A DNA stretch of 64,000 nucleotides, taken from Candidatus Poribacteria bacterium (GTDB lineage Bacteria; Poribacteria; WGA-4E; WGA-3G). The DNA lies in NCBI GenBank assembly GCA_965219695.1, contig CBDCOJ010000032.1, forward strand, positions 259,142 through 323,141. The letters run 5' to 3'. The translations under genes were made by a program, and so were the position numbers. Below are positions 8,082-62,919 of this stretch, piece by piece. The notes under the pieces were generated by a model. It did not search any database and was not told the DNA's origin. It saw only the letters and a list, made by a program, of their open reading frames with translations. Numbering within the stretch: the first letter of the stretch is position 1; each line of letters opens with the position of its first letter.

Positions 8082-10688
<2,607 letters not shown>

Positions 10689-10754
10689 CCCAGTATGTGT
10701 CAATGTAAAAAACGCTATTAGTAACTCAAGTTGCTACCTATTGCGAATGCTCTT

Positions 10755-10777
10755 GTAGGAGGGGTTTCTAACCCCGA
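10755..10777 (+). repeat. GTAG-type REP-like palindrome
   Basis: GTAGGAGGGGTTTCTAACCCCGA; related copies at ~19493, 25152, 60345 and 60391. Confidence 0.7.
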
Positions 10778-10822
10778 TTTATAACAGAAACTGTCAGAAA
10801 TAGTGGGAAACCATTGTCTTAT

Positions 10823-11095
10823 ATGAAGATTAATTTTTTTATTCGGTAATTTTCTATCCGTACGAGGCAGGTGTGTCCCTCTGCTGGCGAGGCGAGGAAT
10901 CATGCTGAATGCCAAAAGCGCATTCAGCCAATGGCATTCACATCCGGGGAATACCAAAAAGGTATTCATACCCGCCAAATGCCATACGCGCATTTGGCGT
11001 TGATTTGGGGGAATGCCTAAATGGCGTTCATACCGTTGATTTCTTGATTTCTTCCTAACCTCGCCAAATTACCGATTTATTTACTTAAACTTCAT
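10823..11095. mobile_element. MITE (ATGAAG...CTTCAT ends) carrying nested hairpin insertions at 10893-11051
   Basis: ~30-bp imperfect terminal inverted repeats; an uninterrupted sister copy lies at 25249-25364. Confidence 0.8.
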
Positions 11096-11137
11096 TAAAA
11101 CAATGGCTAACTGCTCACAGCGAATAAAGAGAGATAG

Positions 11138-13597
11138 ATGCAAGAAGAAAATATTATTAGCCGATCAATAGAAACCGAACTGCAGACCTCATACCTCACG
11201 TACGCGATGAGTGTAAATACGAATAGAGCAATCCCTGATGTGCGGGATGGCTTGAAACCGAGTGCACGCCGCATCATCTATGCTATGGGAGAGATTAATC
11301 TCACGAGTAGTCGCCCTTACGATAAATGTGCTGCTGTTGTTGGTGAAGTCATGAAAAACTTTCATCCGCACGGTGATGGTCCGATTTACGGCACGCTCGT
11401 AGGTCTTGCTCAAGAATTTAGCACACGTTACCCTTTAATAGATGGGCAAGGTAACTTCGGGTCTATTGACGATGATCCTGCAGGGGCAATGCGTTACACG
11501 GAGTGTAGACTTTCAAAGATTGCTGAAACATGCCTGCTGGATATTGATAAGGATACTGTTGATTTCCAGCCCAATTATAAAGAATCGTTAGAAGAACCTA
11601 CTGTCCTGCCCGGTCTTCTTCCGAACCTGCTTGTGAACGGTACTGACGGTATCGGTATAGGTTATTCAACAAAGATCCCACCACATAACCTTAACGAGGT
11701 CGTGGATACTCTCCTGCACGTGCTCGATTTTCCAGATGCCACCGTTGAGGAACTGATGGAATTTCTCCCTGGTCCAGATTTTCCCACTGCCGGAATTATC
11801 GTTGGGAAAAAAGGAATCAAAGATATGTATGCTACTGGCAAAGGGAGCATGACGATGCGGGCGAGAGTGGAAATTGAACCGATACCGCACGATAAATCTC
11901 GTGGAGACCGCGAGCAGATTGTAGTTACTGAAATTCCTTATCAGATTAAGAAAAATCTGCTGCTTCAACAGATGGTTGATCAGGTAAACAACAGTAAAAC
12001 GATTACCGGCATTTCGGATATCAGAGACGAATCTGATGAGGAGATACGTATCGTTATTGAACTTAAGCGTGGGGAAGTGCCACAAGTTGTCTTAAACCAG
12101 CTCTACAAGCACACAAAAATGCAGCATTTTTTCCCTGCAAACTTGCTTTGTCTTGTTGAAGGTCTCCCCAAAATACTAACGCTCCACGAGATTTTACACT
12201 ACTACTTGGCACATCGACGAGAAGTAATCCGTAGACGCACACAGTTTGATTTAGCACGCTGCGAAAGACGTGCCCATATTTTAGAGGGATACCGTATTGC
12301 GCTGGAGCATTTAGAGGAAGTAATTGAACTTGTGCAAACTGCAGAGACGCCGCAGGAAGCCAGGGAACAGTTGATAACACAGTATGAACTATCTGAAGAT
12401 CAAGCGAACGAGGTGCTGGGATTAACCTTAAGCCAGTTAACAGGATTAGGTCGTCAGAATATTAACGATGAATACAGTGACCTCTTGGAACGGATCGCTG
12501 AACTCAAAGCAATTCTTGATAGTGAAGACCTTGTTACCAACATCATCAGAGAAGAATTGGAAGGATTGAAGGAGGATCATGGAGACGATCGCCTCACCGA
12601 AATCGTTTCAGAGGTGAAAAGCTTTGAGATGGAAGACCTCATTGCCGATGAGGAGATGGTTGTCACACTGACACATTCCGGATATCTCAAACGGATTCCG
12701 ATGGATACATATCGAACGCAAAATCGCGGCGGGGTTGGTATTAAAGGCGGAAACCCAAAAGATGGAGATTTCTTGGAACAACTGCTTATCGCAACGGCAC
12801 ACCAATCTCTTCTCTTTTTTACCAGTCTCGGCAAGTGCTATGTGCTGAAAGTTTTTGAGATACCAGAAGGTTCACGCCAAGCAGCAGGTCGAGCAGCGGT
12901 AAATATGCTGAAACTAAGTGACTCTGAGACTATTACCGCATTCTTACCTATTCGAGAGTTTAATGAAGATCTTTATATCTTTATGGCAACGAAGTCCGGA
13001 ATTGTAAAGAAATCTCCATTGGGTGACTTTAGAAATCCTATTTCCAGTGGAATTATAGCAATTAACTTAGACCCAGACGACCAACTAATCGAAGCGCATC
13101 TTACCGATGGGAAATACGATGTTATCTTGGTTAGCCATAACGGAAATGCTATACGATTTAACGAATCGGATGTCCGCAGTATGGGGCGCCGCACGCGCGG
13201 TGTCCGTGGCATTCGCCTCGCTGAAGAAGACTTTGTTGTAGACATGGTATGTTCCGCAGATGAAAACGATTCTCTTCTCATTGTAACAGAAAACGGTTAT
13301 GGCAAACGAACAGGATTATCAGCGTATCGTTCGCAGAAGCGCGGCGGCGTAGGACTGACTGCCATTAAGCGTTCAACGCGTAATGGTGCGGTCGTTTCTG
13401 CTAAACTCGTTACGAGATCAGATGAGCTTGTTCTTATTAGTTCCACAGGGTATATTACGCGTATGCCAGTCAGCGATATCCGTTCAATTGGTCGCACAAC
13501 GCAAGGTGTCCGGCTCATGACTTTACAAGAAGACGAGACACTTGTGGATGTCGGAAAAATCTCGGAAACCGATTCTGATAGCGATATAGGAGGATAG
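11138..13597 (+). CDS. gyrA: DNA gyrase subunit A
   Basis: PDVRDGLKP, HPHGD, AMRYTE catalytic Tyr, GyrA-box QNRGGVG, C-terminal pinwheel repeats. Confidence 0.97.
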   Translation: MQEENIISRSIETELQTSYLTYAMSVNTNRAIPDVRDGLKPSARRIIYAMGEINLTSSRPYDKCAAVVGEVMKNFHPHGDGPIYGTLVGLAQEFSTRYPLIDGQGNFGSIDDDPAGAMRYTECRLSKIAETCLLDIDKDTVDFQPNYKESLEEPTVLPGLLPNLLVNGTDGIGIGYSTKIPPHNLNEVVDTLLHVLDFPDATVEELMEFLPGPDFPTAGIIVGKKGIKDMYATGKGSMTMRARVEIEPIPHDKSRGDREQIVVTEIPYQIKKNLLLQQMVDQVNNSKTITGISDIRDESDEEIRIVIELKRGEVPQVVLNQLYKHTKMQHFFPANLLCLVEGLPKILTLHEILHYYLAHRREVIRRRTQFDLARCERRAHILEGYRIALEHLEEVIELVQTAETPQEAREQLITQYELSEDQANEVLGLTLSQLTGLGRQNINDEYSDLLERIAELKAILDSEDLVTNIIREELEGLKEDHGDDRLTEIVSEVKSFEMEDLIADEEMVVTLTHSGYLKRIPMDTYRTQNRGGVGIKGGNPKDGDFLEQLLIATAHQSLLFFTSLGKCYVLKVFEIPEGSRQAAGRAAVNMLKLSDSETITAFLPIREFNEDLYIFMATKSGIVKKSPLGDFRNPISSGIIAINLDPDDQLIEAHLTDGKYDVILVSHNGNAIRFNESDVRSMGRRTRGVRGIRLAEEDFVVDMVCSADENDSLLIVTENGYGKRTGLSAYRSQKRGGVGLTAIKRSTRNGAVVSAKLVTRSDELVLISSTGYITRMPVSDIRSIGRTTQGVRLMTLQEDETLVDVGKISETDSDSDIGG

Positions 13598-13664
13598 TTG
13601 TCAGTAACAATCCTTCGTCAAGTGTGGTTACAATACTACGGAGCAGGTTTATTATTATTATTAT

Positions 13665-13835
13665 TATAGTGGATTCTACAATTAACTTTACATTATTGAG
13701 TTGTAGGAGGGAACTCCGATTCCCAACGGATAATAGGTTGAGTCGTGATTCGGAAATCACTCCCGCTGGATGCCAAACGCGCATTCAGCGGTGATTCACA
13801 GAAGAAGTGTAAACTTACTTTTCTAATTCACTATT
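13665..13835. mobile_element. MITE (TATAGT...ACTAT ends) containing an inverted REP pair and a 34-bp hairpin insertion; preceded by (TTA)6
   Basis: Imperfect TIR ATAGTGGATTCTACAATTAACTTTACA / TGTAAACTTACTTTTCTAATTCACTAT; REPs at 13703 and 13742. Confidence 0.7.
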
Positions 13836-13856
13836 AAAGCAGACAAGGAGACGATT

Positions 13857-15398
13857 ATGAAAAGCAACTTTTGGAAAATTTTTACCCTACTGAGCATAGT
13901 ATGTCTTTTCTCAGCAGGAGGGGGAACAGATGCACAAGAGTTAATCTCATCTACGACAGCAGAACAAGTGCCGTTGACAGAGGCATCTGAAAGCGAAAAA
14001 AAGATTTACACACAACTGATGTACGCAATCTATCTACAAAGTTTTGATAGAGACTTAGATGCTGTAAAACGGTTATATGATGCTTTAGTGGAACAGGCAC
14101 CTGAGTCTGCTTATGTCTGGTACAAACGCGGACAGCTTCGGTTTCATCGGTTGCAGGATGTTAAAGGTGCTAAAAATGATACGCTTGAAGCGCTCAAGCT
14201 TAACCCATCCCACGTTCCTGCAAACTGGCTGCTTGCTGAGATCTTAATGCTCCACGCATCTCATCATTCAGGTCGGAACTATATCGTAGAAGCGTTGAAA
14301 GCTGCTAAAAAAGTGACTGAACTTGATCCTAACCATTTAAGGGCACATCGAAGGGTTGCTAATTTAGCGTATGAACTCCAAGAATATGCTGCTGTGGAGA
14401 CATCTTTGAAAGCACTAACACGCGTTCTACCTTTTGAACCTGAATTTCATAGCCGACTCGGTAGACTCTATCTAATAACAAATAAGCCGCAGGAAGCTAT
14501 TGATGCTTACCAGCGCGTCATAAAAATTACGCCAAACGACCTGATAGCACTTAGAATTATAGGGCGTCTTTATCTTGAGGCAGAGAAATTGACGGAAGCA
14601 GAACAAACCTTTGAGCATATCCTTACATTAGTCCCGCAAGACGTTAATGGAAACTTAGGACTTGGCTTGGTTCTTCAGAGACTTGCTGAACAGGCACATA
14701 CGTCGAGCAATAAAGACCCGAAAAGTGAGCAGGCAGATTTGCAGACACTCATTCGAGATGCAGAAACATATCTTGGACGAGCGATTTTCTTTTCTAAGGA
14801 TTTTATCAATAACCCTCGGAACGATGTCCAACGTGCCTATTTTAAACGGATGGCGATAGATGCTCAGTATGCGTTGGCAAACGTTTATTTTCTGTATAAA
14901 AAATATGAGAAAGCCGAGGAAACTTTCGCGCAACTTCTTGCTGACAATCCGGATCACACCGGCGCTACTTATGGGATTGCTGCTGTCTATCAGACAATAG
15001 GGGCATTCGAAAAAGCGGAAACGTATTTGCGTAAAACGCTTGAAATTGAACCGGGGCATGAATATGCACTCAACGCACTCGGTTATCTCTTTGCAGAGCA
15101 AGAAAAAAATCTGGATGAAGCAGAAGCTTTGATAAAGCGGGCACTCCAAAAGTCTCCAAAAAACGGGGCATATCTTGATAGTCTTGGATGGGTCTACTTT
15201 AAACAGGGACGTATCGCTGAAGCTGTCACATTGTTGGAAAGTGCGAACCAACAGCTGCCTGACAATGCTGAGATTCTGATGCACCTCGGTGATGCTTATC
15301 TTGAAAACGGTGAACCTGAAAAAGCACGTGGTGTTTGGCAACAAGCGCAAACAATTGAACCTGATAATGATGACATACAGGAACGACTCAAACAATAG
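13857..15398 (+). CDS. Exported tetratricopeptide-repeat protein
   Basis: Signal peptide; multiple TPR units; ALNALGY / YLDSLGWVYF motifs. Confidence 0.85.
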   Translation: MKSNFWKIFTLLSIVCLFSAGGGTDAQELISSTTAEQVPLTEASESEKKIYTQLMYAIYLQSFDRDLDAVKRLYDALVEQAPESAYVWYKRGQLRFHRLQDVKGAKNDTLEALKLNPSHVPANWLLAEILMLHASHHSGRNYIVEALKAAKKVTELDPNHLRAHRRVANLAYELQEYAAVETSLKALTRVLPFEPEFHSRLGRLYLITNKPQEAIDAYQRVIKITPNDLIALRIIGRLYLEAEKLTEAEQTFEHILTLVPQDVNGNLGLGLVLQRLAEQAHTSSNKDPKSEQADLQTLIRDAETYLGRAIFFSKDFINNPRNDVQRAYFKRMAIDAQYALANVYFLYKKYEKAEETFAQLLADNPDHTGATYGIAAVYQTIGAFEKAETYLRKTLEIEPGHEYALNALGYLFAEQEKNLDEAEALIKRALQKSPKNGAYLDSLGWVYFKQGRIAEAVTLLESANQQLPDNAEILMHLGDAYLENGEPEKARGVWQQAQTIEPDNDDIQERLKQ

Positions 15399-15466
15399 TT
15401 TTTAGTAGCCAGTTATCGGTTATGCAATTGTGTTGATAACTGACTACTGATAGCTGAAGACTACTA
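15396..15466. repeat. Inverted arrays of degenerate heptamers (AGTTATC / GATAACT type)
   Basis: TAG..CAGTTATCGGTTA followed by TGATAACTGACTACTGATAGCTGAAGACTA. Confidence 0.6.
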
Positions 15467-15470
15467 AAAA

Positions 15471-17177
15471 ATGCGATATATCATCACAGTTATCTTACTG
15501 ACGCTAATTTTTTCTGCCCAGTATAGTGAGGCATTTCGCTGCGGGACACCACATCTAAAAATGGATATGGCACCCGAACTTTTAACGCCTGTGCCAACCG
15601 CACCCGGACATCCCGCAGCACCAGCACTTACCATCGGATTCCAACGAACTTTTTTTGCTATCGATTTCGAAAGAAAACAGCAGTATACAGTCAATGCAAC
15701 GCTGCGGGCAAGCGGCGCCCACTGTTACATCTTTGTTGAAGATTCGGAATGGCAAGAGAATGTCACAGCACTCACAGTTCAAACTATCCAAAGAGCGTTT
15801 GAGATAGCAACTCCAGCAGACCCACAGCGCGGGATATATGACATCTTAACGGAAGACTTTGGCGCACCACCAGATATTGATCGAAATCAGAAGGTAATTT
15901 TACTTCTTCTCAATATTCGCGATATTGACATCCACCATGCAACAGCTGGGTACTTCTTTCCGATTGATCAGCAAAGAGGTATGCTACACCATCCAACCCT
16001 CGGACCACTACATAGCAACGAAGCCGATATCCTCTATATTAATTCCGAAAAGCAACCAACGAATTCTGATGTTATGCACTCTGTTATCGCTCATGAACTC
16101 CAACACCTTATCCACTGGAAGCATTCTCCGAAGGAAGAAACGTGGATAGACGAAGGGTGTGCTGATTACGCAGCTTTTCGATGTGGTTATAACCTTTACC
16201 AACATCTTAATGCTTTTCAGAAGACACCAAACATTTCATTGACCGACTGGTCCCAGATGAGCCAGACGAACCTGCTTGCACACTACGGTGCGTCTTTTCT
16301 TTTTATGTTATACCTCCATGATCATTATGGTGGTATACAAACCATTGCGGCGCTTGTAAAAAATCCTTTAGATGGCTTTTTAGGGATTACACGTACGCTG
16401 CAGGCACGCGGGGTGTCTCACACATTCTCAGACATATTTGCAGACTGGAAAGTTACAAATTACCTCACTACGTGGAAGGTACTCGGAACTGTGGAAAAAT
16501 CTTTTCGGTACCACACGTTAGTTCCAGCGATTCAACCGCTATTTATCCATGACACCTACCCGGCTCTTGGGAAAAATAAAAAACTTGCCAATTTTGCTGC
16601 ACATGCTATTGAATGTAAAGTGACAACAGCGGATCAGGCAGGTCTAAACCTCAGTTTTTCTGCACAACGAAACACAAACGTAGACATCAAGGTTGCATAT
16701 CTATACAATACAGGGGAGATTAGTGTAGAATCGTTGCCCTTTAAAACTGCTGATGGAACTGCCGTATTGGATCTTCCTAATTTTGGGAATGGCATCCAAC
16801 GTGTGATGTTTATTCCAAGTCTACAAGTTGCTAATCAAAGTTTTTCTCAGCAATCTATAACTTACAACTATAATGCGTTTGAAGGAAGCCTCGGCACTTA
16901 TACCACACACATCCTTCCTAATCCAATTCATCCAAATTATTGGGAAGTTATTGCTGTGCCAAGCGAGGCGAAGGGCGTGCATTCACTTACATTAACGCTG
17001 ACGTACCAAAACAGGAAAATTCTTGATGCAAAACCGATGGTATATGTTAAAAATGAAGATAATTCACTTTATAGACATGCGTTCCATCTTAAACCTGAAA
17101 TCGATACAGAAGCGGTTGAGTGGAGCATCATGCGAGGGGACACTATTATTGACGAAGGGATTCTGAATGACCGATAA
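15471..17177 (+). CDS. Secreted zinc metallopeptidase (M6/M30-like)
   Basis: Signal peptide, RCGTP propeptide-like motif, HELQH zinc motif followed by WIDEG; C-terminal LPNP motif. Confidence 0.75.
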   Translation: MRYIITVILLTLIFSAQYSEAFRCGTPHLKMDMAPELLTPVPTAPGHPAAPALTIGFQRTFFAIDFERKQQYTVNATLRASGAHCYIFVEDSEWQENVTALTVQTIQRAFEIATPADPQRGIYDILTEDFGAPPDIDRNQKVILLLLNIRDIDIHHATAGYFFPIDQQRGMLHHPTLGPLHSNEADILYINSEKQPTNSDVMHSVIAHELQHLIHWKHSPKEETWIDEGCADYAAFRCGYNLYQHLNAFQKTPNISLTDWSQMSQTNLLAHYGASFLFMLYLHDHYGGIQTIAALVKNPLDGFLGITRTLQARGVSHTFSDIFADWKVTNYLTTWKVLGTVEKSFRYHTLVPAIQPLFIHDTYPALGKNKKLANFAAHAIECKVTTADQAGLNLSFSAQRNTNVDIKVAYLYNTGEISVESLPFKTADGTAVLDLPNFGNGIQRVMFIPSLQVANQSFSQQSITYNYNAFEGSLGTYTTHILPNPIHPNYWEVIAVPSEAKGVHSLTLTLTYQNRKILDAKPMVYVKNEDNSLYRHAFHLKPEIDTEAVEWSIMRGDTIIDEGILNDR

Positions 17178-17211
17178 TTGATAACCGATAAGTTATTACG
17201 AGGAGGTATAT

Positions 17212-18192
17212 ATGTCAAACACACTTTATGCAGGAACAATTGGACAAAGCATTTGGCGAAGCACCGATGTCGGTAAGACTTGGCATCGTGTCAGCAACGG
17301 TATTTTTCCAGAAGCAGACATCCGCGCAATCGTTGTACATCCAACGGATTCAAATATACTTTATGCTGGCACTGAAAAAGGTATTGTCAAAAGCATAGAT
17401 GGGAGCGATACGTGGAAACACATGCCGAGTGAGATGGATGACCGAGAAGTTTGGTCGCTTGCGATTCATCCGACTGCTCCGGATACACTTTATGCGGGAA
17501 CTTGTCCATCTGCGTTTTTCAAAACAACAGATGGTGGTGAGACATGGACGCAACTTGATGCTGAACTTGCACAAGAATGTGAAGGTATTCCCATCATCCC
17601 GCGCGTAACAACTATCATTATTGATCCAGAACACCATGAAACTGTCTATGCGGGAATTGAAATTGACGGTATGCGTTTAAGCACCGATGGTGGAAAAACT
17701 TGGGATGACCGAAGTGAAGGTTTGAGCAGCTTGGATATCCACGGGTTGACGGTGGTTCCGGGTGAGCAAAAAGCCCTTGTTGCTGCGACAAATAACGATG
17801 TCTGTATTACCACAGATATGCACAATTGGACACCTTTGAAGGTTCGCAACCATTTTCCGTGGCCCTACTGCCGCGCAGCGTTTTATTTGAACGGTGAAAA
17901 CGCTAAGGTCTTTATTGGTGCTGGTAACGGTCCTCCTGGCGACCAAGGCGGTATCTTTTATATGCGAGATACTGATGCGGCACAAGATGCGGATGCAATT
18001 CGTTGGGATCGCTCTGATATTGGGATGACTTCGAATAGCACTATTTGGTGTTTTGGCTATAATCCGAGTGTTGACGGATTGCTGATTGCCTGTAGTGTAA
18101 GTGGGCAACTTTTCTTGAGTGAGGACAATGGCGATTCATGGGCGAAATTGGCACATGAATTTGGTGAGGTGCGCGCCTTGGCGGTCGCCTAA
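17212..18192 (+). CDS. BNR/Asp-box beta-propeller protein (Ycf48/sialidase-like)
   Basis: Repeated SxDxGxTW motifs. Confidence 0.8.
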   Translation: MSNTLYAGTIGQSIWRSTDVGKTWHRVSNGIFPEADIRAIVVHPTDSNILYAGTEKGIVKSIDGSDTWKHMPSEMDDREVWSLAIHPTAPDTLYAGTCPSAFFKTTDGGETWTQLDAELAQECEGIPIIPRVTTIIIDPEHHETVYAGIEIDGMRLSTDGGKTWDDRSEGLSSLDIHGLTVVPGEQKALVAATNNDVCITTDMHNWTPLKVRNHFPWPYCRAAFYLNGENAKVFIGAGNGPPGDQGGIFYMRDTDAAQDADAIRWDRSDIGMTSNSTIWCFGYNPSVDGLLIACSVSGQLFLSEDNGDSWAKLAHEFGEVRALAVA

Positions 18193-18420
18193 CAGTGAAA
18201 AGTGCTTAACCAAGAAAGTCTCTGTGTGGTTGTTAAAAATAAGATGCTACACAGGGACTTTTCACTATAGCATCTCTTTTAGAACGCCATTGAGATGAAC
18301 AGATGTAATAAAAATAAATTGTATCTTGACTTTTTTCGGCAATTTTGATAAACTTTTGGAAATAGGTGGGTTGTGCGCTGAACTCAACGATTTGTTGGCA
18401 GACATAGGGGTTTTGCCCTC

Positions 18421-18496
18421 CGCCAAATCATGCAGAATACCATACGGGCATTCCCTTTTGGTTTGGTATTTTGCTACGCGCATTTGGCGTTAATTT
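18421..18496. mobile_element. Nested small hairpin elements
   Basis: CGCCAAAT...TACGCGCATTTGGCGTTAATTT interrupted by AATCATGCAGAATACCA...TGGTATTTTGC. Confidence 0.6.
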
Positions 18497-18573
18497 CGTC
18501 TAAGGACGCAGCACGCGCACAGATGCCCTATGACAAAAGGACAAAAGTTTAATCAAGGAGGCATATCTCTATT

Positions 18574-19341
18574 ATGCGTTTTTTTAGTTTTCTATTCATA
18601 CCTTTTCTCCTCATTTCAATCGCTGGATGTATTGGAGACGGTGAGATTAATATTGACACCCCGCCATCTTTTGGTGAAGCAAAGAAAATTGCTATCACGT
18701 CTTTCATCGCTGAAGAGGAAGAGGCACAGAAACTTGGCAAACGAATTAGCATCAATTTGGGGAACCGTTTAAAACTTATACTGAAAGACAGTGAATGGGT
18801 ATTTGACGAGTCGAATAAAGTCCAACCGGTAGCTGATGAAGTTGCTGAACTCGGATTAACACTAAATGATGTTTACGCGGATCCTGCTTTGGCAGCTAAA
18901 GTCGGGCAAGCTCTTAATGCCGACATCATTATCACCGGAATGGTAAATAATCCAAGATTGGCTCGAAAGGATAGCAATGAGCATCTCATGCGGCAGGGGA
19001 GACAGTCAGGTATTTCGGGTACATCTACCTTTATTACGACCCGACAGACAGCAAGTGTCAAAACACGGGTCAAGGTTATTGATGTAGCAACAGGCAATGT
19101 ACTCTATAACAATAAGATCCAGTCTTATCTCAAGTACTGGTTTGCCTATCAAACCCAGATGAGCAACAACGTTATTTTCAAAGAGGATATGGATATGCTC
19201 GCGGATTTAGGCATACATCTACCACGCCGTATTTCGTATATGCTTTATCCAAGTGGTATCAAGAAAGAGCCTCAAGATAAGGTTTTGTTGAAACCAGACA
19301 TTGTCCTCAAAGGCACAGGCGGAGTATTCAAATTCGATTAG
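18574..19341 (+). CDS. Lipoprotein, CsgG/TolB-N-like fold
   Basis: Lipobox IAGC; KIAITSF, AAKVGQALNADIIITG and VKVIDVATG patterns. Confidence 0.6.
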   Translation: MRFFSFLFIPFLLISIAGCIGDGEINIDTPPSFGEAKKIAITSFIAEEEEAQKLGKRISINLGNRLKLILKDSEWVFDESNKVQPVADEVAELGLTLNDVYADPALAAKVGQALNADIIITGMVNNPRLARKDSNEHLMRQGRQSGISGTSTFITTRQTASVKTRVKVIDVATGNVLYNNKIQSYLKYWFAYQTQMSNNVIFKEDMDMLADLGIHLPRRISYMLYPSGIKKEPQDKVLLKPDIVLKGTGGVFKFD

Positions 19342-19409: not shown

Positions 19410-19440
19410 ACTGAAATCTAAAACAAGTAGGCACTCCCCC

Positions 19441-19671
19441 GGTAGGTGCGGTTTCTAACCGCACCATAGGCGTCAATTTAAGAACTATTTCTTGTTGGAG
19501 GGGTTTTCAACCCCGAATTATTACCCAAAGATAGGCGCGTTTTGTAAACGCGCCGTTTATAGCGTCTGATGTCTGGGCTCGGCGCGTTTACAAAACGCGC
19601 CTACCTATATAGTCATGAATTGGAATCCTCTTCTACTCAAAAATGTCAAGTCAATTGTAAAATTCACTATA
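19441..19671. repeat. Cluster of REP-like palindromes, a REPIN doublet (19531-19606) and MITE ends
   Basis: GGTAGGTGCGGTTTCTAACCGCACC; GGCGCGTTTTGTAAACGCGCC in both orientations; GCGTCAATTTAAG and AATTCACTATA ends. Confidence 0.7.
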
Positions 19672-25151: not shown

Positions 25152-25433
25152 GTAGGAGGGCTTTGTAAGCCCGATTTATTCCCCCAAGGTAGGCGCGTTT
25201 TGTAAACGCGCCGTTTATAGTTTCTTATTTATGTATCGGTGCGTTTACATGAAGATTAATTTATTAATTCGGTAATTTTCTGTCCGCACGAGGTGGATTT
25301 ACTTCCCCTGCTGGCGAGGTTTCCTAACCTCGCTAAATTACCGATTTATTTTCTTAAACTTCATCAAAACGCACCTACCAGGGTGGCGAACCGCTAAATT
25401 GACAGTTATGGTGCGGTTTGAAATCGCGTCTAT
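25152..25433. mobile_element. REP cluster with a MITE (25249-25364) inserted into the loop of a REP
   Basis: GGTGCGTTTAC[ATGAAG...CTTCAT]CAAAACGCACCTACC, compared with the intact REP at 19581. Confidence 0.8.
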
Positions 25434-36867: not shown

Positions 36868-37031
36868 TGGTAGTTTTGTTGTTTTTCACAATTGTTCATA
36901 TTCTGTAGGAGCGATCTCCGAATCGCGACCCATTGTAGTCGGGAATCGGAGTTCCCTCCCGCTGAATGCCAAACGCGCATTCAGCGTTGATTCACAGATC
37001 AGGTGTAAAGTTAATTGTAAAATCCACTATA
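36868..37031. mobile_element. MITE with inverted REP pair and 34-bp hairpin insertion (36960-36993)
   Basis: GTAGGAGCGATCTCCGAATCGCGAC at 36905; right end TGTAAAGTTAATTGTAAAATCCACTATA. Confidence 0.7.
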
Positions 37032-39360: not shown

Positions 39361-39539
39361 GGTGTCAATAGATTTGTTGTGAGGATTGGTTACAGAATTT
39401 GTAGGAGCGATCTCCGAATAGCGACCAAAGCCATTCGTAGTCGGGAATCGGAGTTCCCACCCGCCAAATGCCATAGGCGCATTTGGCGTTGATCCCCTCG
39501 CTGGTGAAAAGTGTCCAAATAATTTTAAAATCTACCATA
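39361..39539. mobile_element. Composite REP/MITE cluster with hairpin insertion (39462-39495)
   Basis: REP at 39401, inverted REP at 39440, CGCCAAATGCCATAGGCGCATTTGGCGTTGAT, right end TCTACCATA. Confidence 0.65.
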
Positions 39540-47190: not shown

Positions 47191-47323
47191 GTAGGTTGGG
47201 TAGAGCGGTAAAAAAGCAAGTGTTACCAAGTTTTCACGGAAAGTTTGTATTTTTGTACCCATTCATATAAAAAAAGATATAGCGAAACCCAACGAATGTC
47301 ACACGCGCATTCGGCTTTGATTT
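47191..47323. repeat. Split REP-like element followed by a degenerate hairpin element
   Basis: GTAGGTTGGGTAGAGC...GCGAAACCCAAC then GAATGTCACACGCGCATTCGGCTTTGATTT. Confidence 0.55.
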
Positions 47324-62771: not shown

Positions 62772-62919
62772 TATAACTATTGTTCTGTCTACATTTATAT
62801 TATAGGTCGCGATTCGGAGATCGCTCCTACAGAAATCTTGTCTATTATAGGAGGGAACTCCGATTCCCGACTATTGCCCATAATTTTAGAATGGACTGTC
62901 CACTATTTTGCTTTATAGT
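62772..62919. repeat. REP-like pair, including an intact reference copy GTCGCGATTCGGAGATCGCTCCTAC at 62806
   Basis: Same family as 13703/13742, 36905 and 39401. Confidence 0.7.

Follow-up and report, generated by a model that had tools for sequence, protein, structure and literature searches.

A 34-nucleotide hairpin element nested in REPs, MITEs and its own relatives in a genus of Poribacteria-like sponge symbionts

The window studied here, a stretch of 64,000 nt of DNA, carries copies of a 34-nt unit (type I) made up of a 27-nt hairpin followed by the heptamer TTGATT(T/C). The unit lies in REPs, in MITEs and in a stack with its own relatives, and the family to which it belongs is restricted to a single genus of Poribacteria-like sponge symbionts. 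The genomes compared show directly that this family exists, how it is built, which targets it takes, in what order it nests and that it is gained or lost between species. The unit is very probably a mobile miniature hairpin element, non-autonomous, and ranks outside cyanobacteria among the smallest mobile DNA elements that have been seen. That a RAYT/HUH enzyme is the mover is a tentative proposal; the joint statement, a trans-mobilised miniature hairpin family with a RAYT-type HUH mover acting in trans, comes only a little short of an even chance.

Structure, copies and distribution of the unit

The type I stem comprises 10 bp and closes a loop of 7-8 nt, with TTGATT(T/C) lying 3' of the hairpin. 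Depending on the search, the genome that contains the window (G000) has 335-456 copies. The 16-mer formed by the 3' arm and the tail gave 221 exact matches and 456 matches with at most one mismatch, nhmmer returned 439 matches (308 near full length), and 148 copies fit a strict hairpin pattern, with a perfect 10-bp stem in 124. Within the window, the 16-mer was observed six times at up to three mismatches against 0.79 expected, the highest count in 100 shuffles being 3. Variation in the stem had been read as compensatory, with the structure conserved, and covariation confirmed this reading. Four stem pairs covary; 96.9% of cells are paired versus 89.6 +/- 0.4% in shuffles, the observed level being reached in 0 of 500 shuffles, and double changes occur at 3 of 11 stem pairs (13 copies, four genomes).

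All copies listed in the first-pass annotation were found where it had placed them; the one at about 47293-47323 is present but degenerate, its 5' CGC being missing. The two empty sites proposed for comparison, a REP in the 62826 region and a MITE in the 25313 region, both proved correct on re-reading.

10973..11006, + strand: intact type I unit, 34 nt, CGCCAAATGCCATACGCGCATTTGGCGTTGATTT; innermost insert of the nest, flanks CC|GG
13764..13797, + strand: type I unit with one stem mismatch and tail GTGATTC; replaces the T of ..CACTCC-T-ACAGAAG at a REP doublet end
18421..18496, + strand: old type I unit with tail TTAATTT, interrupted by an inserted degenerate hairpin starting CATGCAGAATACC
36960..36993, + strand: type I unit with perfect stem and tail TTGATTC; context ..GTTCCCTCC[element]ACAGATC, at a REP-B end
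39462..39495, + strand: type I unit with tail TTGATCC, at a REP doublet end
47293..47323, + strand: degenerate copy without the 5' CGC; tail reads TTTGATTT
25310..25328, + strand: empty MITE centre, GCTGGCGAGG-T-TTCCTAAC, read from the window
62802..62832, + strand: empty REP end, GTCGCGATTCGGAGATCGCTCC-T-ACAG; the replaced base is the T at 62828
62820-62832: empty REP for comparison, ..GATCGCTCC-T-ACAGAA, read from the window

Every other genome of the same genus that was searched (24 of 24) contains the element, at 1-280 copies (280 in G005, 97 in G011), and it is found in 0 of 16 genomes from three other families of the order. Among public records, full elements occur only in those titled Candidatus Poribacteria. 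The 16-mer stays at background in 301 cyanobacterial genomes, with no more than 4 matches per genome at up to one mismatch; viral contigs gave 83 single 16-mer matches, with a full hairpin at 0 of the 80 loci checked. Among the matches listed for palindromic repeats in the Poribacteria literature, titles and opening lines of abstracts deal with other subjects, such as CRISPR, and contain no report of these repeats.

Nesting, target sites and differences between species

The most elaborate arrangement lies in the central loop of a MITE upstream of gyrA and is composed as follows.

10823..11085, + strand: host MITE with terminal inverted repeats ATGAAGATTAAT... / ...TTAAACTTCAT
10893..11051, + strand: nested block of 159 nt that replaces a single T in the MITE central loop
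10893-10945, + strand: outer element of a sister family (type II), a module of the nest
10904-10928, + strand: tail-less type-I-like hairpin (type I stem and loop) inside the outer type II element, flanked by CAT..CAATG
10946-10972, + strand: type II core, nest module 5' of the type I unit at 10973-11006
11007-11034, + strand: type II core, nest module 3' of the same unit
11035-11042 and 11043-11051, + strand: piled-up tails GTTGATTT and CTTGATTTC at the 3' end of the nest

As DNA, the block folds at -41.9 kcal/mol (z -5.0). It had been described as about five stacked or nested copies: five hairpin modules are indeed there, but 10973-11006 is the only intact 34-nt unit among them. Likewise, the T of the MITE has been replaced by an element as proposed, but the replacer is the type II sister, of about 37 nt ([C/G]G[A/G]GGAAT[A/G]CC-loop-GG[C/T]ATTCA[C/T]A[C/T]C + GTTGATT..), and not the 34-nt unit. 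The centres of this one MITE family form a series of T alone (16 of 38 centres), 37, 61, 97, 159 (the window) and 198 nt, and the type I unit at 10973-11006 is part of the 62 nt gained between the 97- and 159-nt stages. Centres of 46, 126 and 226 nt were left out of the series, since they hold neighbouring or inverted MITE parts and not cargo. These stages demonstrate that the nesting is real, and their stepwise order requires repeated solo insertions. The image of a 'Russian doll' is thus true, but the dolls are built from at least three sister families.

Target duplication was absent at every empty/filled pair compared, which bears out the earlier statement that no multi-base duplication occurs; by the classical MITE test of terminal inverted repeats plus target-site duplication, the unit is therefore set apart by having no duplication. 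The insertion point lies directly 3' of a C, usually of CC (129 of 170 strict copies have CC as their left flank), and there are two modes of insertion, either clean at CC|GG or with replacement of the single T of CC-T-AC. The claim that the element takes the place of a single T holds for copies with TTGATTC tails, but copies with TTGATTT tails sit at CC|GG with nothing replaced. When the last base of the tail was considered together with the bases that follow, the 170 strict copies gave T+GG in 83 cases and C+AC in 61; 20 copies sit directly after the tail of another copy. Empty look-alikes, reading CC|GG with nothing between or CC-T-AC, were obtained for 69 of 107 flank pairs, and some of these pairs are false, their right flank being the head of another copy (e.g. 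CTCC + GGCTGAATGCCA) matched via an allowed mismatch. A reading of solo copies that start with G as footprints of excision was dropped.

The hairpin-side end of the insertions is precise and the tail-side junction variable, with 0, 1 or 2 target bases replaced; a one-base ambiguity is seen at three sites, where the 5' C or the 3' G is shared with the target. Single cut-and-join models with a 33-nt core, a 34-nt unit (U or U') or a 35-nt unit with a one-base overlap each failed at some junctions. Every REP family of G000 has a GTAG head, and CC-T-AC is that head as read on the complementary strand; the T at 62828 pairs with the A in GTAG. The identical position has been struck in four REP families (32/371, 28/281, 4/128 and 5/82 REP ends).

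The 170 strict copies are spread over 32 left-flank contexts. Clustering was by left flank, since single linkage on either flank had chained 143 of the 170 copies into one cluster. Both main stem variants were found in one and the same REP context, and 12 copies have 30-nt flanks that are unique on both sides; many others share long identical flanks, e.g. ..CGCTCC[element]ACAGAATATATGTAAACTTATTTACATAATTTACTATAA. Three sites of unique context hold the element in some species and lack it in others. One, in a pstA-like gene, is filled in G000, G005 and G021 and empty in five other genomes; here the element adds 11 in-frame codons, the sole confirmed in-frame case. The site at G000:C32:560167 is filled in three genomes and empty in two, and that at G000:C30:97807 is filled in three and empty in one. 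Furthermore, one copy of an IS-like sequence is filled and six copies in other genomes are empty. The 32 contexts, the MITE intermediates and the three filled/empty sites show that the insertions were independent events. The first-pass annotation had named a lack of polymorphism and descent from a single ancestral composite as fatal to its proposal; the census and the cross-species comparison found the opposite of both, and its picture of a minimal non-autonomous element landing in REPs, MITEs and itself is supported by the same contexts, nesting stages and polymorphic sites.

In the window itself, comparison with the syntenic regions of G011 and G048 revealed no clean solo filled/empty difference; what was seen is differences in whole MITEs or REP doublets, an old copy that is shared, and a single partial deletion. 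The host MITE at 10823-11085 is missing as a whole from the orthologous site of G011, and the REP doublet around 39462-39495 is missing, with its element, from G048. At the 13764 site, G011 has the 3' part only (..AGCGTTGATTCACAGAAG) and G048 has the orthologous REP end, ..CACTCC-T-AC, followed by different DNA. The old copy at 18421-18496 is conserved in G000, G011 and G048. A joint from 13763 to 13798 in three runs, skipping exactly 34 nt (sides 18-37 nt, depth 23-102), was discounted as evidence because its depth is at or far above that of closely matching contigs (about 4-22, three runs); its probable source is REP copies elsewhere or another strain. The remaining joints within 10854-11057 reflect other copies.

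The mover: evidence for and against

In the mechanism that we propose, the unit would be copied to new sites as a single strand, recognition being of the hairpin and not of the stem sequence. It is joined immediately 3' of a C, mostly of CC, without target duplication. Sites of the C|G or C|A type gain 34 nt; at CC-T-AC the T is replaced for a net gain of 33 nt, and each such event removes the A of the tetranucleotide that serves RAYTs as guide. The CC|G junctions of resident copies and of the two sister families take new copies in turn, giving rise to tandem arrays and nested dolls. The mover would be an HUH enzyme of the REP-associated (RAYT) kind that works on single strands, recognises the hairpin and is provided in trans.

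An HUH mover had been suggested along with the idea of a minimal element that targets repeats. The latter stands; for the former, the evidence points in both directions. Compatible with such an enzyme are the hairpin with its conserved flanking motif, the lack of target duplication and the fact that the base targeted is the A in GTAG, the guide of RAYTs. According to PMC8266576, RAYTs cleave ssDNA next to REPs, at C|T or at C|A, with GTAG as the guide; under simple cleavage at C|T the T should be retained, and the T is lost. A true RAYT is present in G000, on C30 (NF047646, 122.9 bits versus a cut-off of 80), and a class of RAYTs scoring about 200 bits was seen in G005, G011 and G048. Across 25 genomes the number of RAYT matches correlates with that of element copies (rho 0.56, p 0.004, uncorrected for kinship); no such relation to copy number holds for Y1 genes counted together (rho 0.16). 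The RAYT correlation may simply reflect REP doublets that carry the element as cargo.

The search for Y1 HUH transposases flanked by the hairpin, as the first-pass annotation had envisaged, was run on 22 Y1 loci from five genomes and found none whose own ends are made up of the element. Neither the sole IS200/IS605 copy of G000 (G000:C14) nor its sole RAYT has such a hairpin, the latter being flanked only by GTAG REPs (GTAGGTTCGGTT-type). A copy lies within about 1 kb at only 4 of the 22 loci; at loci L124 and L131 the nearby element is a passenger inserted in a GTAG REP. Two genomes, G023 and G009, have 18 and 19 copies of the 16-mer and no Y1 match. A repeat of about 1.05 kb that contains one copy encodes a 313-aa protein and has inverted-repeat ends; it was considered and is not the element's partner. 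The orientation of the copies showed no bias relative to the sign of local GC skew (103/93 versus 136/124, odds ratio 1.0, where genes give 3.1), in a test weakened by the draft assembly and by the many copies that ride in other repeats; this does not agree with the way in which IS608 targets the lagging strand.

Bases on either side of the insertion point are constrained (CC|GG in 83/170), unlike the one-sided targets of IS200/IS605, and this feature, like the one-base C/G ambiguity at three sites, the absence of strand bias and the failure to find a cognate Y1 gene, would suit a nuclease or recombinase, of host or mobile origin and neither HUH nor RAYT, whose cut at CC|GG-like sites falls 3' of the C and whose joining involves a one-base overlap. 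Such an enzyme is nevertheless somewhat unlikely, since no candidate gene was found, copy number correlates with RAYT count and the compensatory conservation of the hairpin suggests that a single strand is recognised in its folded form, as HUH enzymes typically do. Spread via an RNA copy and reverse transcription was reportedly proposed by Elhai et al. in 2008 for the Nostoc SDR elements. For the present unit we judge this route improbable: the high-copy genomes G005 (280) and G011 (97) have no RVT_1 match at E <= 1e-8, copies do not correlate with reverse-transcriptase count (rho -0.01), and orientation shows no preference with respect to neighbouring genes (107 co-oriented, 117 opposed). Against this, the hairpin-side end is precise where the tail side is sloppy (0-2 target bases lost), top-strand stem mismatches lean to G:T (33 versus 19 A:C, not significant), G000 has reverse-transcriptase matches, and an RNA-library contig spans 13752-13962, a weak indication as DNA carry-over is possible.

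Could the copies instead descend from a few ancient insertions, multiplied later with REP doublets, MITEs and other repeats or by REP conversion? The long identical flanks of many copies would be expected, as would the fact that relatives differ in the window by whole MITEs or REP doublets and not by solo units, and the RAYT correlation. As the sole explanation, however, such multiplication is contradicted by the 32 left-flank contexts and the 12 copies with both flanks unique, by solo gains at three sites of unique context and in one IS copy, by different stem variants in one REP context and by the stepwise MITE series, so that it is very improbable as the whole account; some of the copies certainly did arise in this way. 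A selected functional motif (terminator, RNA-stability hairpin or protein-binding site) rather than selfish DNA is barely credible. A G+C-rich hairpin followed by a T-rich tail does resemble an intrinsic terminator, and 165 of the 170 strict copies lie outside crude ORFs (5 inside) in a genome that is 83% coding. Yet orientation with respect to flanking genes shows no preference, contrary to what an intrinsic terminator would give, copies nest in one another and in other repeats, one is in frame inside a gene, and an Rfam search of 10500-19000 found no match at the elements.

If a RAYT does move the unit in trans, a stronger version is conceivable, in which the unit is a hyperparasite of the REP/RAYT system and uses the RAYT's hairpin-guided cleavage and joining of ssDNA to enter the GT-A-G of REPs. 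We consider this unlikely. Were it true, about 5-10% of REP ends would be disabled in each of four families, no DNA units with known homing to a defined site would be smaller than the 34-nt unit and the members of its two sister families, and such a system would for the first time have been met outside cyanobacteria, with a tractable in vitro route to the question of SDR-like mobility.

Relation to known repeats

Judging by likeness, the closest known analogue is the group of Nostoc SDR elements. Elhai et al. in 2008 reportedly described SDR1-8, small dispersed repeats of Nostoc punctiforme of 21-27 nt, which are said to nest within their own copies and to associate with heptamer repeats. Both kinds measure tens of nucleotides, lack coding capacity, form a hairpin with compensatory changes, insert precisely into other short repeats and nest in themselves (here in the MITE series and, in 20/170 copies, after another tail). 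The poribacterial unit differs in belonging to another phylum, with its 16-mer at background in the 301 cyanobacteria and SDR1-8 compared by description only; it also carries its own TTGATTY heptamer and mainly targets the GTAG head of REPs, with one base replaced at one site class. In the passages concerned with SDRs, SDR5 is stated to insert between bases 3 and 4 of HIP1 (PMC4390886), SDRs are reported as confined to Nostocaceae (PMC5861425), and no enzyme is assigned to their movement (PMC5861425, PMC3116915, PMC4390886). The movement of repeats this short has posed a problem ever since the Nostoc SDRs were described, and a second, unrelated lineage makes it testable: the target rules are clean, nesting stages survive, gains and losses can be followed at the species level, and there is a candidate enzyme class for which an in vitro assay is described in the relevant part of PMC8266576.

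With REPs and REPINs mobilised by RAYTs the unit shares a short intergenic hairpin with a conserved short motif by the stem, as these repeats are characterised in parts of PMC8266576, PMC3116915 and PMC3733652, as well as hundreds of copies, the absence of target duplication, a RAYT in the genome and a copy number that tracks RAYT count. In contrast to them, it has TTGATTY on the 3' side of its hairpin (on the opposite strand, RAATCAA on the 5' side) and not GTAG/CGTC, it forms direct tandems and nests instead of inverted doublets, no RAYT gene is flanked by the unit as its own REP, and it inserts into the GTAG of true REPs, behaving as a parasite of that system. Like IS200/IS605 and its miniature derivatives, as outlined in sections of PMC8266576, it causes no target duplication and inserts directly 3' of a short target, and a hairpin-dependent single-strand logic of this kind is plausible by analogy. 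The unit has a single hairpin where those elements have two subterminal ones, both flanks of its target are constrained, its copies showed no bias towards either replication strand (a weak test), and the ends of the only IS200/IS605 copy of G000 are unrelated to it.

REPs have already been described as preferred landing sites of another kind of mobile element, the REP-targeting insertion sequences reportedly documented by Tobes and Pareja in 2006; those are full insertion sequences with a transposase, whereas here the newcomer is a gene-less unit of 34 nt. REPs themselves can thus be parasitised. Insertions of this type also explain the poor assembly of intergenic regions in these symbiont genomes. 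The palindromic elements of Rickettsia are about 100-150 bp long. They resemble the present unit as palindromic repeats placed in frame in a protein gene (11 codons in the pstA-like gene), and differ in that only one in-frame case is seen here, among the 5/170 strict copies in crude ORFs; 'Rickettsial REPs' are mentioned in a passage of PMC3733652. Inserts of the poribacterial unit can add in-frame residues to proteins and so can mislead gene calling.

Structure of the unit and its target sites

The 34-nt unit of the window's genome (G000; a draft assembly of 5.69 Mb in 32 contigs, 93.7% complete), here termed type I, is built as C[G/A]C-NNN-AT[G/A]C, a 7-8-nt loop (mostly CAAAAGC, CATACGC or CAAACGC), G[C/T]AT-NNN-G[C/T]G and a TTGATT tail whose seventh base is T or C. 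All copies named in the first-pass annotation were found in the window, and the sequences of an empty REP (~62828; REPs are short repeats with a GTAG head) and of an empty MITE centre (25320) agree with its description. A 16-mer made up of the 3' arm and tail matches the window six times at up to three mismatches, against 0.79 expected and a maximum of three among 100 shuffles. Across G000, a strict hairpin pattern identified 148 copies, the 10-bp stem being perfect in 124, with one mismatch in 16 and two to four in 8. The 3' arm plus tail gave 456 matches at one mismatch or fewer (335 exact), and a structure-free profile search gave 439, 308 of them near full length.

Stem variants among the strict copies include CGCCAAATGC (n=66), CGCTGAATGC (n=33), CGCAGCATGC (n=13), CGCCAAATAC (n=8), CGCCGAATGC (n=6) and others, each accompanied by the complementary 3' arm. 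Of the stem cells in 104 distinct near-full rows, 96.9% are paired, compared with 89.6 +/- 0.4% after shuffling of the 3' columns; none of 500 shuffles scored as high. Four stem pairs switch pair type (CG 48/TA 34/AT 7; AT 52/GC 44; AT 86/CG 8; GC 78/AT 15), and RNAalifold returned an identical 11-pair helix for 13 copies from four genomes, with double changes at three pairs. Top-strand stem mismatches are G:T in 33 cases and A:C in 19, a difference that is not significant. An Rfam search gave no match at the elements.

Outside crude ORFs, which served as gene calls, lie 378 of the 456 matches and 165 of 170 strict copies, in a genome that is 83% coding. The left flank of the 170 strict copies is CC in 129, TT in 20 (another copy's tail) and GG in 9; the seventh tail base and the bases that follow are T+GG in 83, C+AC in 61 and C+CC in 8. 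Each main stem variant is found with either tail, so the seventh base is a property of context, not of lineage. When the 12-nt flanks were joined and searched for throughout G000, empty look-alikes were recovered for 69 of the 107 distinct flank pairs, although pairs with another copy's head on the right owe their match to the allowed mismatch and are false empties. The empty form of T-tailed copies is CC|GG or GG|GG with nothing in between (for example, AAATGTAAGAGG|GGCAATGAATTG, 51 times, and TTTAGTCC|GGTAGGGACGAT, 20-26 times); that of C-tailed copies contains one T, CC-T-AC (75, 36, 28, 19, 17 ... times), or two bases (TA, AA, AG). Replacement of a single T, noted earlier in all three cases compared, thus applies to C-tailed copies, some of which replace two bases, but not to T-tailed copies, which replace nothing. 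The proposed lack of target duplication was borne out in every empty/filled flank pair compared. All REP families in G000 have the head GTAGG, to which CC-T-AC is complementary; therefore, the unit replaces the A of GTAG. In four REP families, 32 of 371, 28 of 281, 4 of 128 and 5 of 82 ends have undergone this replacement, the last family being the one that flanks G000's gene for a RAYT, a REP-associated HUH (Y1) enzyme.

The 170 strict copies form 32 left-flank clusters (12 nt, up to two mismatches), the largest of which, at REP ends, comprises 62 copies and both main stem variants (30 + 27). In twelve copies, neither 30-nt flank recurs elsewhere in G000. Many others, which have long flanks in common, have multiplied as cargo.

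Gain and loss between species

The closest relatives used for the window were G011 and G048 (~94% identical over the gyrA stretch and less so in the rest of the window). The MITE upstream of gyrA (window 10823-11085, with a 159-nt cargo) is wholly missing at the orthologous site of G011 and is therefore itself polymorphic between species; one whole REP doublet of the window is missing in G048. An old nested copy at 18421 is common to all three genomes. At 13764, the G048 REP end looks empty but the downstream DNA is unrelated, and a deletion in G011 leaves just the 3' part of the unit. Comparison of window 13740-13800 with G011 (extracted locus L113) showed that the REP end is lost together with the 5' two-thirds of the unit (..GTGATTC|AGCGTTGATTCACAGAAG); the break falls at a short ATTC repeat, which suggests that such units decay by slippage.

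Clean filled/empty cases came from unique-context sites outside the window. At G000:C30:299188-299221 (contig 30; locus L142 1381-2145, minus strand), a pstA-like permease gene that adjoins a pstB-like gene carries the unit in frame close to its start, the best family matches at this locus being under curated cut-offs. The site is filled in G000 and its relatives G005 and G021 and empty in G052, G011, G054, G016 and G013. The rare loop CACACGC and derived flank bases common to all three filled copies argue for a single event. In G000 the protein is 254 aa long (MKR-QNQRQMRVWHLAE-LIYQS...), and its counterpart in G011, where the site is empty, is 243 aa (MKR-SV-LIYQS...), a net difference of +33 nt or 11 codons. 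A net 33-nt gain at T-replacing sites preserves the reading frame.

The site at G000:C32:560167 is filled in G000, G011 and G005 and empty in G052 and G048 (CACTCC|GTGTGCC -> CACTC[CGCC..TTGATTT]GGTGTGCC, net 34 nt), and that at G000:C30:97807 is filled in G000, G005 and G021 and empty in G011 (ACCC|AACG -> CACC[CGC..TTGATTT]GAACG). A ~1.05-kb repeat is filled in its G000 copy and empty in six copies from four other genomes. The fifth site lies within a 136-nt repeat that is wholly missing in G011, G048 and G005, the three relatives with abutting flanks. In the between-species cases the hairpin-side junction is always ..C|CGC.. and the tail side is variable; at G000:C32:560167, G000:C30:97807 and the ~1.05-kb repeat, the target shares either the first C or the final G with the unit. 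The ~1.05-kb repeat (G000:C29:350052-351285, locus L137; locus L156 1527-2468) has inverted-repeat ends and a 313-aa ORF, and G021 and G052 each hold 11 matching places; the G000 copy that bears the unit looks decayed.

Stepwise nesting in the MITE family

Thirty-eight centres of the MITE family (window 10823-11085, 25320) were recovered. Rows of 46, 126 and 226 nt (four centres) represent neighbouring or inverted MITE parts and were excluded.

Contents of the MITE centres in G000
T only (empty): 16 copies; one more centre with nothing
37-nt sister element by itself: 4 copies; CGAGGAATGCCTAAATGGCATTCACATCGTTGATTAC
60-62 nt: 9 copies; net 24 nt within the loop of the sister element, a tail-less type-I-like hairpin with flanks CAT..CAA
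96-97 nt: 2 copies; second sister element inserted in the first, separating its core from its tail
159 nt: 1 copy, only in this window; intact 34-nt unit plus another 28-nt core
198 nt: 1 copy; three cores of the sister element plus two type-I-like units, with three tails stacked at the 3' end

The series shows successive independent insertions. The 'Russian doll' at 10893-11051 is thus upheld as a stepwise nest, but one built from at least three related families and not from one. The sister unit, type II (~37 nt; window 10893-11051, G000:C2:27863 and genome-wide), reads [C/G]G[A/G]GGAAT[A/G]CC-loop-GG[C/T]ATTCA[C/T]A[C/T]C + GTTGATT... It inserts behind the core of its own kind, ahead of the tail, so that tails pile up (GTTGATTT CTTGATTT CTTGATTAC). 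The tail-less hairpin, type III (flanks CAT..CAA), inserts into other hairpins, in their 5' arm or loop (GAAT|CATG..). Rough counts in G000 are 335 for type I, 111-172 for type II, 114 for type III heads and 113 for tail-on-tail junctions. The block 10893-11051 folds at -41.9 kcal/mol (z -5.0), far better than shuffles.

Candidate movers, known analogues and spread

A hairpin-recognising single-strand HUH enzyme is a plausible, if unproven, mover. Such an enzyme would fit the conserved stem shape with its freely varying middle, the short conserved motif adjoining the stem, strand-specific insertion within REPs, the lack of duplication at insertion and a favoured target that is the RAYT guide tetranucleotide. 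RAYTs cut next to REPs in single-stranded DNA, at either C|T or C|A, with GTAG contributing to site choice (PMC8266576). The sole RAYT of G000 (C30:232865-233278; locus L096 1414-1980, minus strand) is a true RAYT (NF047646, 122.9 bits against a cut-off of 80) with GTAG REPs on both sides, GTAGGTTCGGTT..AACCGAACC and GTAGGTGCGGTT..AACCGCACC, in the classic REPtron layout. RAYT matches correlate with element copies over 25 genomes (rho 0.56, p 0.004; median copies 13, 28, 26 and 170 for 0, 1, 2 and 3 matches), though only suggestively, given that related genomes are not independent of one another and that the element rides in REP doublets. Several results count against an HUH enzyme. Element orientation does not follow the sign of the local GC skew (odds ratio 1.0, p 1; genes, 3.1), and Y1 matches as a whole do not track copy number (rho 0.16), G023 and G009 having no Y1 match yet 18 and 19 copies. 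Only 4 of 22 Y1 loci in five genomes have a unit within ~1 kb, and in the two inspected (L124, L131) it is an insert in a GTAG REP; no hairpin was found near G000's RAYT or its sole IS200/IS605 tnpA-tnpB copy. Furthermore, the T is lost at CC-T-AC sites, whereas a plain C|T cut would retain it. The IS200/IS605-type pair (G000:C14:145354-148698, locus L095) consists of a tnpA match of 133 bits and a 370-aa tnpB-like ORF, and its ends bear no relation to the hairpin family.

Movement via RNA, reportedly proposed for the spread of Nostoc SDR elements, is not favoured here: no RVT_1 match is present in G005 or G011 at E <= 1e-8, the number of reverse transcriptases is unrelated to element copies (rho -0.01), and orientation relative to genes shows no preference (107 vs 117). 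On the window's own contig, ~33 kb before the window, G000:C32:225496-226137 holds a reverse-transcriptase match of 162.5 bits with a 566-aa open frame. A 212-nt metatranscriptome contig (window 13752-13962), possibly DNA carry-over, begins 12 nt before the unit at 13764 and extends into the next gene.

The Nostoc SDR families are the closest analogue of type I: both are very small hairpin repeats with compensatory changes and precise insertion into other repeats. SDRs are also said to nest within themselves, and we know of no mover for them. SDR5 inserts into HIP1 (PMC4390886). Type I belongs to another phylum and is not by sequence a member of anything abundant in the cyanobacteria sampled; in 301 genomes from the phylum of a Microcoleus record, the 16-mer gave at most four matches per genome, even at one mismatch. 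In build the unit is like a REP, but neither a GTAG nor a CGTC tag is present, no RAYT gene is flanked by it, and its arrays are direct tandems, not inverted doublets. It shows none of the marks tested for IS200/IS605 derivatives, classical MITEs and terminators. Among the titles and abstract openings listed in literature searches on Poribacteria, none reported such repeats. The original observation is confirmed and extended, and the evidence supports reading the unit, an SDR-like miniature hairpin element, as a minimal mobile element that targets other repeats. What sets the type I family apart is its homing to the GTAG head of REPs, the preserved step-by-step nesting series and one in-frame insertion into a gene.

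In a scan of species-representative genomes, the full unit was present in 25 of the 80 loci listed, out of at least 94 matching stretches. Among these listed matches, all 25 records with the full unit are titled 'Candidatus' or 'uncultured Poribacteria', and the remainder are isolated chance 16-mers; the REPs around the unit are the same as in G000. The 16-mer, on which the relatives' copy numbers are based, occurs in all 24 other genomes of the genus that were searched (1-280 copies each, G005 having 280, G021 243 and G011 97, against 221 in G000) and is absent from 16 genomes that represent three further families of the order; its reversed control pattern gave 0 in every genome compared. Among viral contigs, none of the 80 loci checked, out of 83 single 16-mer matches, carried the 34-nt unit. 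A tandem array in G021 (C1:917915-918257) contains five 16-mer matches on one strand, the last four 34-69 nt apart. The window stretch was found in sponge metagenome runs, where contig depth at 19431-19500 and 10634-11267 reaches thousands, compared with ~5-20 for unique DNA, which marks these repeat families as very abundant community-wide.
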